Source: an uncultured archaeon
Lineage (GTDB): Archaea; Asgardarchaeota; Lokiarchaeia; Sigyniarchaeales; SOKP01
Assembly: GCA_964486045.1 (NCBI GenBank)
Contig: CAZALK010000002.1
Location: 192,001-256,000 of the forward strand
Direction of reading: 5' to 3'
DNA length: 64,000 nucleotides
Shown: positions 8,032 to 40,171 of the stretch, one piece after another
Numbering within the stretch: the first letter of the stretch is position 1
How the letters are laid out: the number at the start of each line of letters is the position of its first letter
Notes under the pieces: model-generated
What the model was told of the DNA's origin: nothing
The model's database searches: none
What the model saw: only the letters and a program-made list of their open reading frames with translations
Position numbers and translations under genes: made by a program

Positions 8032-9132
8032 ATGAGTGAAGGAAAAGAACGAACATTTTTAGTGGGAATTTTTGGAGAAAATTTCGAACATAGAAAATTG
8101 TTAGGACAGGCTTTGGGAGCCCCAGGAACAAGTTCAGATATACAGTTCTATAATAGGTTAGATTCAAAATTAGGTTACGTCTTTACAGCATTAACTCCAA
8201 TTGACTATCCTGAAAAACTTAAACCATTTTTACAGACGTTAATACTGACTGATATCCATATTTTAATTATTGATGTAGATTTTGGTTTAAATTCCTCGGT
8301 AGGAGAGATATTAGTAGGAATGGATTTATTCCACAAGATGTCCAACACAAAATCATTAATTGTACTTTCTGGGATTACATCCAAAACAGAATGGAAGTTA
8401 AAAGATATTAAAAAAAAGATAGATTCTGTCTTAAATAATACGACACTTCAAGGAATTGAAGTTATTGAAATTAGACAGAAAGAAGAATATAACTCATTAA
8501 AAAAGAAAATTGTAGAGCTTGCTGCTGAAGCCCCTATAAATGGTTTAAAATCAGCACCCTACTCAAAAGTATTAATAGATCATGCGTTTTCAGTAAAAGG
8601 AATTGGTACGGTTATCTTAGGAATTGTTAGAAAAGGAACAATATATTCAAGCCAAATGCTGGATTTAACAGGAAATCATGGAGCAGCAAAAAAAATTATC
8701 ATTAGAAGCATCCAAAGGCATGATAGAACTTTTAAAGAAGCTCACGAAGGTGATAGAGTTGGGTTAGCATTAAAAGGCAACATTTCTACAGATGAGATTA
8801 GTAGGGACAATATAATTACATCTCAAGGTATTTTTAAAGGGGAGGAAGAAATAACAGCTAAAGTTTATATAAACCAATTCTATAAACCTAAAGGTGGAGT
8901 TATTATCCCTGGTGATTTAACAGAATATCATGGCATAGCCGAAATTAAAAGCACGCCCTTAAAGATAATTGAAGGGGAAAAATTAAACCCAGGAGATTCT
9001 GGAATAGTAAAATTGAGGTTTACTAAACCGTTATATCATGATGGAAGTGGGCTAAGTGGAATAATTTTTGATTTAAACCGTTTTCAAAACAAATTAAGAA
9101 TAATTGGACACTATAAACAATTATTAAATTAA
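8032..9132 (+). CDS. Archaeal SelB-like (aSelBL) EF-Tu-family protein with degenerate G domain
   Basis: GTSSDIQFYN, YPEK, IDHAFSVKGIGTVILG, IRSIQxHD, GDRVGLALKG. No GxxxxGK(S/T) P-loop or NKxD. Confidence 0.8.
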   Translation: MSEGKERTFLVGIFGENFEHRKLLGQALGAPGTSSDIQFYNRLDSKLGYVFTALTPIDYPEKLKPFLQTLILTDIHILIIDVDFGLNSSVGEILVGMDLFHKMSNTKSLIVLSGITSKTEWKLKDIKKKIDSVLNNTTLQGIEVIEIRQKEEYNSLKKKIVELAAEAPINGLKSAPYSKVLIDHAFSVKGIGTVILGIVRKGTIYSSQMLDLTGNHGAAKKIIIRSIQRHDRTFKEAHEGDRVGLALKGNISTDEISRDNIITSQGIFKGEEEITAKVYINQFYKPKGGVIIPGDLTEYHGIAEIKSTPLKIIEGEKLNPGDSGIVKLRFTKPLYHDGSGLSGIIFDLNRFQNKLRIIGHYKQLLN

Positions 9133-13649: not shown

Positions 13650-14165
13650 ATGACCGAACTACACATTTCAACTACAAATAAAGGATTACCACTCGGAACT
13701 AAAGCACCTATGATTGACGAAGAAGATATTGATGGAGATAACGTGAATTTAACTAAATTGTTGGAAAAACACAATGGAGTTTTAATCGATCTATTTAGAG
13801 GAAGTTGGTGAATTCATTGCAGAAAACACCTCACATATTTAAATGAAAATTTATCAATACTAGAAAAACATAATATTAAGTTAATAGCTATCGCAATAGA
13901 TCTTCCTGATAAATTAATAAAAATGAAGTATAAAAACAACTTTAAGATACAGTTTATTACTGATCGCGCCGGAAGAATTAGTAAGGCATATAATGTTTTC
14001 TTAGATAGAAAGAGTGCTGTCCATGATGGATTGCAAATAAGCCATGCGATACCCTCGAAGTTTCTTGTCAATAGAGAAGGAAACATCGTTTGGGAATATA
14101 TCGGAGCAAAAACAGATAGACCATCAATCGAATTAATTGAAGATGCAATTATAAAATATCTATAA
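13650..14165 (+). CDS. Peroxiredoxin-like (AhpC/TSA, thioredoxin fold) selenoprotein, Sec at codon 54
   Basis: ATG 13650 is in frame with TGA 13809-13811 and with the track ORF at 13923. Reads GLPLGTKAP...LFRGSW-U-IHC...ITDRAGRISKAYNV...AIPSKFLVNREGNIVW, i.e. U-x-x-C at the CxxC site. SECIS-like hairpin follows. Confidence 0.92.
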
Positions 14166-14172
14166 TTTATAA

Positions 14173-14240
14173 TCCCATTAAGAATGATTTATGTGCATAA
14201 ATGATTGGCATGTGATGACAACCTTGCAAGGGTTCTGGGA
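14173..14240 (+). promoter_or_regulatory. Eukaryote-like SECIS element in the 3' UTR
   Basis: AUGA (14184-87), N11, AA(A) (14199-201), GA (14217-18). 8-bp helix UUAUGUGC/GCAUGUGA, UGAU/UGAC non-Watson-Crick core, basal helix UCCCA/UGGGA. Confidence 0.85.
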
Positions 14241-14314
14241 ATAAATGTTTCTTTTTTTTGAACGAATATATTAAGATTTAAAAATAAATAAAACTTAATG
14301 ATTAGCAATCCAGC

Positions 14315-38752: not shown

Positions 38753-40171
38753 TTATAAACCCATTTCATGCAATTTTTGCATGATTTCTTGCTTTTTCTT
38801 TCCCTTCAAATCATACCACTTATAAAAAACTAAAGCTCCTACGATACAAAAGATAAAGGGTAAAATACCTTGAATCAGACGAAGACCAAATATTCCATTC
38901 TCACTTGGACTATCGGGGTTATAAAGTGTGACTATATGGATAATCGCAACAATAAAGCTCTGAATTGTAACTGAGATTTTAGTAAAAAAATTCCTAATTC
39001 CCAACAATGTTGCTTGGTGGTGCTTTTGGATTTTTAAGGCAATCTCATCATAAACATCAGCGAACAGAGGGGATAACATAATCAAAAACATTGCAATTGC
39101 AATTCCTCTTAAAAACGCTATTACAAATAACTGGAGAATATTCACAATAAAAAAATTGCCTAACATTACAAAACCAAAGAATAATAAACCCAATGAAAAT
39201 AAAGCTGAATGCTCAATTTTTTTAGCCACAATAAACCATATGGGAATTGTTAAGAGAGAAGATATAAGCATTATTAATGATTCAAAAGTTCTTACTACTT
39301 GAGGGACTCGAAGAACATCATCCACAAAATTGACCGAATTCATGCTGATTAATCCCATTGCTATCATAAAAAAAACATATGCAAGAATAACCAGCATAAA
39401 ATTTTTTTGTTTAATCGCTATTTTCATTGTTTTAAAGAAAGAAATTCTTTCTGCATGCTCGTAACCTACGATAAAACGCTCTTTTATCTCTTCTGATTCT
39501 TTTGAGCCAGGAATAAAAATTAATAGAGACCCACCTAAAATAAAAACACTTATAATTGCAGCAAACGTAAATGAAGGAGGATTCCCTGGGATAATAATTA
39601 AAGACCATACTCCTACAGTTAAAAAATTAGCTATAAATGTAAAAATTTGAGAAATTAAACCCGCTTTTCTACGATTAGACTCCCCTCTAAAGTGAGCACC
39701 AAATCCTCCAAAAGTGTGGGTGTTTATGAGTGAAAAAAAAGCGTCAAATAAACAGACAATGATAATATAATAGAGCAAGACAGGTATCACACTCCCTACT
39801 CCTGTAACATTGGGTGGGGTAAAAAGCAAGAAAAAAAGTATAATTGTTGGAATCCCACCTATTATAATCCATGGAGTGTGAAAGCCCCTTTTTTTTGTCC
39901 ATCTTGTAGGTCTATCGGTATAAAATCCAATAAGAAGTCCCACAACCATACTCCATATTGTGTATACCACGTTTGCCAGAGCCATATAAATAGGCCAAAA
40001 AGATACTATATTTGTAAAGCCGAGATTATCTTCGTAGAATGTCCATACAAAGCTATTGAAAGCCATCATAACAAAAATATTGAAGAAATATCCCATAGAA
40101 AATAAGAATATCTTAAGAGTAGGCACTTTTTTCACTTCATTTGAATTTAAACCTTTTCTTAAAGACACCAT
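38753..40171 (-). CDS. MFS transporter, GPH (glycoside-pentoside-hexuronide)-like
   Basis: About 12 hydrophobic segments; GFYTDR...PWI, ADVYDE. Confidence 0.85.
   Translation of the reverse strand: MVSLRKGLNSNEVKKVPTLKIFLFSMGYFFNIFVMMAFNSFVWTFYEDNLGFTNIVSFWPIYMALANVVYTIWSMVVGLLIGFYTDRPTRWTKKRGFHTPWIIIGGIPTIILFFLLFTPPNVTGVGSVIPVLLYYIIIVCLFDAFFSLINTHTFGGFGAHFRGESNRRKAGLISQIFTFIANFLTVGVWSLIIIPGNPPSFTFAAIISVFILGGSLLIFIPGSKESEEIKERFIVGYEHAERISFFKTMKIAIKQKNFMLVILAYVFFMIAMGLISMNSVNFVDDVLRVPQVVRTFESLIMLISSLLTIPIWFIVAKKIEHSALFSLGLLFFGFVMLGNFFIVNILQLFVIAFLRGIAIAMFLIMLSPLFADVYDEIALKIQKHHQATLLGIRNFFTKISVTIQSFIVAIIHIVTLYNPDSPSENGIFGLRLIQGILPFIFCIVGALVFYKWYDLKGKKKQEIMQKLHEMGL

Follow-up and report, generated by a model that had tools for sequence, protein, structure and literature searches.

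The 3' UTR of a peroxiredoxin-like gene (prxL) in the analysed stretch of 64,000 nucleotides (the window) carries a predicted SECIS element at 14173-14240 on the forward strand. Sequence comparison confirmed its assignment to the eukaryote-like type and to the published lokiSECIS class, of which it is one more member. The comparison also confirmed that its side hairpin, P3, is not peculiar to the prxL element: nearly all Asgard SECIS elements examined share it as a conserved third arm. The core was already known; the phylum-wide third arm and the closed 3-nt bulge are new with respect to the main texts of the published descriptions. In our best explanation, to which we give a probability of about 0.72, the element would be a three-way-junction cis signal for Sec at UGA54, with the P3 loop as a second functional determinant.

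The prxL gene (13650-14165, forward strand) is predicted to encode a 171-aa selenoprotein of the AhpC/TSA type with a UxxC motif, and its product matches the Pfam domain AhpC-TSA with an E value of 1.7e-18. The list of open reading frames breaks the gene in two at an in-frame TGA (13809-13811), which precedes the SECIS core by 372 nt. When this codon is read as Sec54, in the context RGSW-U-IHC, the frame continues to the TAA stop at 14163-14165. Homologs of prxL were found in 47 of 81 related genomes, and one or two TGA codons are retained in all strong matches. Orthologs with 81% identity are located on LAZR01 contigs, which belong to the assembly from Loki's Castle that Mariotti et al. studied. 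As in lokiSECIS elements, the prxL element lies just behind a gene with an in-frame UGA at a Cys-homologous site. Another ortholog (L043:601-1113), 91% identical, has TGG at the Sec codon with the three-armed SECIS intact, which is either a sequence error or a recent loss.

The genome contains genes for tRNA-Sec, EFSec, SepSecS, a PSTK-like kinase and two SelD proteins, which is the archaeal Sec machinery without SBP2 described for lokiSECIS hosts, with the kinase match scoring below the curated cut-off. The EFSec gene is located on contig C15 beside those for tRNA-Sec and SepSecS; its 472-aa product is of the archaeal type, with an aSelB_III domain and no SelB-wing match. A search of the genome with PF01248 (L7Ae family) gave two matches only, both in frames shorter than 130 aa and read as L7Ae and L30e, and no SBP2. 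The preliminary description had suggested reading by L7Ae/L30-type proteins without SBP2, and the gene content agrees with that. Promethearchaeota are among the closest named relatives of SelD, in a search that gave mostly bacterial matches and few Asgard names; with the LAZR01 orthologs of prxL, this marks the host as an Asgard archaeon of the Lokiarchaeia type. A 366-aa protein related to EF-Tu/SelB is encoded in the window at 8032-9132; it has a degenerate GTPase N-terminus and is not a true EFSec. One selD gene (L031, G000 C1:758842-759903) carries 30 extra in-frame nucleotides, including a second TGA, which do not occur in other SelD sequences. This insertion folds into an A/U hairpin and might be a small mRNA intron of the archaeal type. 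SelD matches of families f13 and f24 have TAA within the match.

The element begins with the eighth base past the stop codon, as first described. Its basal helix P1 pairs UCCCA (14173-14177) with UGGGA (14236-14240), an assignment based on sequence, RNAfold and comparison of PrxL genes. The 5' side of the SECIS core, AUGA(U), is located at 14184-14188 and provides the tandem G.A/A.G pairs followed by U.U; its UGA is invariant in 54 sequences. The upper helix P2 consists of 8 bp between 14189-14196 and 14208-14215, and it encloses an apical loop of 11 nt (14197-14207) with AAA at 14199-14201 and G14207 as its last base. The 3' side of the core and its closing C form U-GA-C at 14216-14219, recognized from sequence and alignment, with GA at 14217-14218. 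The motif AUGA-N11-AA-N16-GA therefore has the spacings proposed in the preliminary description, counted from AUGA at 14184-14187, and the helices of 8 and 5 bp given there are also present. P3, with strands AACCU and GGGUU around the loop UGCAA (14225-14229), occupies 14220-14234, and its loop contains a conserved G14226-Y-R. A U-rich tract follows at 14248-14259, with U tracts 3' of the element in most homologs; it is probably an archaeal-type transcription end.

The three-way junction is both the minimum free energy structure and the centroid predicted by RNAfold, with an energy of -13.1 kcal/mol for the whole element and -5.5 kcal/mol for the core alone. The folding energy is no more favorable than that of shuffled sequences (z 0.15). 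An Rfam search with the element gave no SECIS match at the gathering score, nor at E values up to 10. Because single-sequence stability is close to that of shuffles and Rfam gives no SECIS match, the case for a real element must rest on comparison.

Comparison of 54 distinct PrxL 3' UTRs revealed the same fold behind the orthologs. P2 is paired in 96.5% of the cells (pair by sequence) and shows two-sided changes at 8 of 8 pairs. For the side helix the paired fraction is 93%, and slid controls of the whole structure give 28-48%. The register AACCU/GGGUU with the 5-nt loop UGCAA is paired in 91.1% of cells and is also the one predicted by RNAalifold. The hairpin noticed in the preliminary description thus stands; however, the register given there, with a UGCA loop and a bulged G, was rejected, being paired in 81.9% of cells only, with one pair disrupted in 21 and another in 15 of the 54 sequences. 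Covariation of P3 within PrxL is modest (two-sided change in 10 of 270 cells), because the two central C-G pairs are nearly invariant and seldom change. Among 20 aligned selD elements of the same family, two-sided changes occur at each of the three counted P3 pairs and at both closing pairs; one of the P3 pairs is A-U in 12 sequences and G-C in 8. Here 99.3% of cells are paired, against 29-55% in slid controls. The covariation expected among Asgard SECIS elements was thus found, for P2 in PrxL and for P3 in SelD.

A total of 114 distinct gene-anchored elements, from PrxL, SelD, VhuD and five other gene groups, were screened for the hairpin with a descriptor built from PrxL and then applied to SelD and VhuD. 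A hairpin starts 0-8 nt past the core GA in 110 of them and has GY in its loop in 107; these are counts and not probabilities, since the sequences are related and their independence is overstated, and a handful of the automatic picks are in a wrong register. The corresponding numbers are about 28 and about 15 for shuffled windows, 6 and 3 for windows 40 nt downstream, and 63 and 17 of 630 for decoy cores of this genome. A stricter descriptor found the hairpin in only 39 of 56 PrxL. Behind VhuD genes the strict hairpin is present in 30 of 37 with Sec versus 5 of 28 with Cys, and the AUGA core in 31 of 37 versus 1 of 28; seven SelD rows tagged Cys, mostly or wholly alignment-start artefacts, were left out of this comparison. 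With later additions, the set covers families f1 and f2 of the same order, f5, f6 and f7 of the same class, and f12, f13, f18, f21 and f24 of other classes. The selD 3' end of family f12 is common to a named Thorarchaeota record. The side hairpin accompanies every one of the 12 type I cores of this genome, as well as two type II cores. The preliminary description had seen the three-way junction as a variant; the junction is supported, but the hairpin belongs to the usual Asgard layout and is no variant of a single element.

The P3 loops range from 4 to 8 nt, mostly 5-8, with G-Y-R on the 3' side and extra bases added 5' of the G. A strict GNRA tetraloop was rejected as a general rule for P3, since the loops include AGCA, AAUGCA and GUAAGCG. 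In 88 of 108 cases the G of the loop is 8-9 nt away from the 3' end of the hairpin, a range partly fixed by the script. Behind the Sec genes L098, L227, L228 and L229 of families f2 and f7, P1, P2 and P3 with a GCA loop are present without the AUGA core. A few Sec genes (L067, L249) have no clear GY loop behind them.

A further pair is conserved between P2 and the junction. In 112 of 114 elements, the nucleotide two positions upstream of AUGA is paired with the one directly following GA, as G-C, C-G, U-A or U-G. At the position of the prxL pair, G14182 with C14219, it is G-C in all 54 PrxL elements, and in the SelD alignment C-G in 13, U-A in 6 and U-G in 1. This pair corresponds to the -1b/-1n pair of a standard kink-turn and closes a bulge of three nucleotides, A14183, A14184 and U14185. 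At the sequence level the 3-nt bulge, the tandem G.A/A.G, a Watson-Crick -1b/-1n pair and U at L3 are all present, so that above the junction the covarying pair is predicted to close a kink-turn of the standard form, with a 3-nt bulge, of the kind bound by L7Ae-family proteins. The 3b.3n pair is U.U here, and 3n is G in about a third of PrxL elements; U.U at 3b.3n falls outside the kink-turn class that folds in Mg2+ alone (PMC4382518). Proteins of the 15.5K/Snu13 type prefer 3-nt-bulge kink-turns, while SBP2 prefers large internal loops (PMC1874613). Below, a basal helix of at least 5 bp closes the junction in 52 of 54 PrxL elements versus 10.6 expected. P3 and P1 are joined by a linker of 0-1 nt in SelD elements and in the prxL element.

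The lokiSECIS was described by Mariotti et al. (2016) behind PrxL, VhuU and HdrA-VhuD genes as AUGA, a stem of 9 bp under an 11-nt loop that has adenines on its 5' side and G at its end, and then GA, with no SBP2 (PMC4989117). The same structure, as Asgard type I eSECIS-like, was extended to 1224 Asgard genes by Huang, Xiao and Zhang in 2024 (PMC11227280). The prxL element resembles it in its place behind a PrxL gene near the stop, in the AUGA and GA, in the apical loop, and in the genome in which SBP2 was not found. The 9-bp stem corresponds to U.U plus the 8 covarying pairs, and the loop at 14197-14207 starts with AUAAA and ends with G. The published models, however, comprise core, upper stem and apical loop only, and the main texts describe neither the third helix nor the closed 3-nt bulge. 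Huang et al. draw a two-stem element whose internal loop and lower stem are without highly conserved bases (PMC11227280). The main texts of both studies contain no side hairpin, though it may be drawn without remark in supplementary figures; the word "hairpin" is absent from the text of Huang et al. (PMC11227280), and a 2026 review leaves the hairpin unmentioned. Full-text literature searching returned no paper that combines SECIS, three-way junction and Asgard, and one paper that names lokiSECIS.

With the eukaryotic type I SECIS, bound by SBP2 and eL30, the element shares the AUGA/GA core with its tandem G.A quartet, the apical adenines, the location in the 3' UTR and presumed action at a distance. 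The upper helix of eukaryotic SECIS elements has about 11-12 bp, whereas that of the prxL element has 8, and a 3-nt bulge and a junction take the place of the large internal loop. The core is thus eukaryote-like, as the preliminary description had said, but the full eukaryotic kink-turn consensus claimed there does not hold: the upper helix is short, the bulge has 3 nt, and the Rfam match, like SBP2 in the genome, is missing. Its exclusion of the methanogen and bacterial types proved sound. The Methanococcales/Methanopyrus SECIS is similar in its 3' UTR position and in operating with archaeal EFSec and no SBP2, but its GAA/A bulge between G-C-rich stems is absent from the prxL element. One example, a Methanocaldococcaceae selD SECIS (L151), has the GAA/A and no side hairpin. 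The bacterial SECIS is an in-frame hairpin directly 3' of the UGA and is bound by a winged-helix SelB, in contrast to the downstream position and the wingless EFSec found here. In the k-junction of the TPP riboswitch (Wang et al. 2014, PMC4005666), too, the non-bulged strand of a kink-turn is interrupted by a third helix, and the strand order is identical. In the prxL element, however, a closing helix of 1-3 bp lies between kink-turn and junction, and the element may be a simple k-turn atop a three-way junction rather than a k-junction, which is also characterized by coaxial stacking of the third helix with the C helix and by the cross-strand hydrogen bonds of a k-turn.

In the proposed working of the prxL element, P1, P2 (the lokiSECIS arm) and P3 would fold as a junction just past the stop codon, with P2 leaving it through the standard kink-turn closed by its Watson-Crick pair. 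P3 probably stacks on P1, for which the short linker is suggestive. L7Ae or L30e could plausibly clamp the kink-turn in the place of SBP2, and the assembly would bring EFSec and its Sec-tRNA to UGA54. The P3 loop, which keeps a near-fixed distance from the junction, would act as the second determinant. It looks like a contact site because of its conserved triplet, its near-constant distance from the junction and its survival without the kink-turn. That the loop is recognized by EFSec or by an Asgard-specific factor has a chance somewhat short of even; internal tertiary docking is a less likely role. In the PrxL alignment of related sequences, considered for a tetraloop receptor or pseudoknot partner, the loop columns covary only with one another. 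An L7Ae/L30 reading of the element is plausible, but binding by these proteins cannot be the whole mechanism because the hairpin survives in elements without the kink-turn core. A bolder version, which we consider possible but rather unlikely, takes P3 and not the kink-turn as the primary determinant of Asgard SECIS elements, its G-Y-R loop being read by EFSec or another Asgard factor, and would account for the persistence of P3 in core-less elements. If it were true, eukaryotes would have lost the arm when SBP2 arose, leaving the large internal loop behind.

P3 could instead be purely architectural, stacking on P1 and setting the junction angle, with a loop consensus that is just a stable GNRA-like cap. 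The short linker to P1 is in keeping with this, and GCAA, GCGA and GUGA are common stable loops, found in these genomes at the ends of tRNA variable arms as well. Yet most loops have 5-8 nt rather than being tetraloops, with their extra bases 5' of the G, no UUCG-type cap occurs among the loops listed, and GCA is retained in ten families and in the core-less elements, which makes a purely structural role improbable. A separate 3'-end signal for termination, processing or mRNA stability, merely adjoining the SECIS, would fit the U tract within about 15 nt after the element in most PrxL homologs. This is less probable still: P3 is enclosed by P1 in 52 of 54 PrxL elements and is rare behind Cys-type VhuD genes and decoy cores, and no match resembling an intrinsic terminator was found.

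The variable arm of this genome's tRNA-Sec, UAUCC-UGCGAAG-GGAUA, resembles P3 and raises the idea that the hairpin mimics it and recruits a tRNA-Sec-binding protein. However, the tRNA-Sec arm of family f2 is without the G-Y-R loop that P3 of its SECIS elements retains, and the arms of other families have generic GCAA, GAGA and GCGGA caps, so we regard such mimicry as very improbable. That the hairpin is a chance fold in one 3' UTR, as its shuffle-like folding energy might suggest, is refuted by conservation and covariation over three gene families and ten taxonomic families, and its likelihood is close to nil. The three-way-junction signal with a functional P3 loop is preferred over all of these.

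The Asgard SECIS, which is cited as the link to its eukaryotic counterpart, bears on how archaeal 3'-UTR SECIS elements are read without SBP2, and the phylum-wide third arm makes that question more accessible to testing. Should a three-way junction of about 70 nt be the working unit, the published consensus is incomplete, reporter constructs and search models need extending, and the P3 loop offers a definite target in the search for the missing factor. In the only experiment found, a Loki vhuU SECIS failed to direct read-through in the foreign host M. maripaludis, with a construct of unstated length and sequence and a reported MFE of -6.9 kcal/mol (PMC11881835). That construct may have lacked P3, because its energy is nearer to that of the prxL core alone than to that of the whole element.

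Requiring core plus hairpin also sharpens selenoprotein discovery. In this genome the filter reduces 415 loose cores to 18, ten of which are behind UGA-containing genes. A VhuU motif, sought with one pattern, was not found in this genome. A core with a side hairpin at L038:281 (G000 C16:46380, minus strand) has no assignable UGA-containing gene upstream and is an orphan SECIS, belongs to a very short gene or is due to chance. A 69-aa Cys-rich ORF (L035:388-594; G000 C11, SECIS at 149404) has four in-frame TGA codons, including U-N-U, and a lokiSECIS 10 nt past its stop. Its only Pfam match is a weak one to a zinc ribbon, and it may resemble the bacterial GDCCVxC (seleno)protein family. An ORF of about 163 aa (L040:1548-2042; G000 C25, SECIS at 39050) has two adjacent TGA codons (HAD-U-U-ADV) and a SECIS 8 nt past the stop; it lies downstream of an Acr3-like transporter gene and is absent from the families in the list of Huang et al. 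Two small hydrophobic ORFs, L032:1180-1428 and L041 (G000 C3 142939 and C35 3783), contain one TGA each (GSGN-U-SC and SLA-U-GT), are followed by three-armed SECIS elements and are candidate membrane selenoproteins. A type II SECIS with the side hairpin was also found at G000 C11:51273 (minus strand), behind a 306-aa frame with FAT-U-NAAG.
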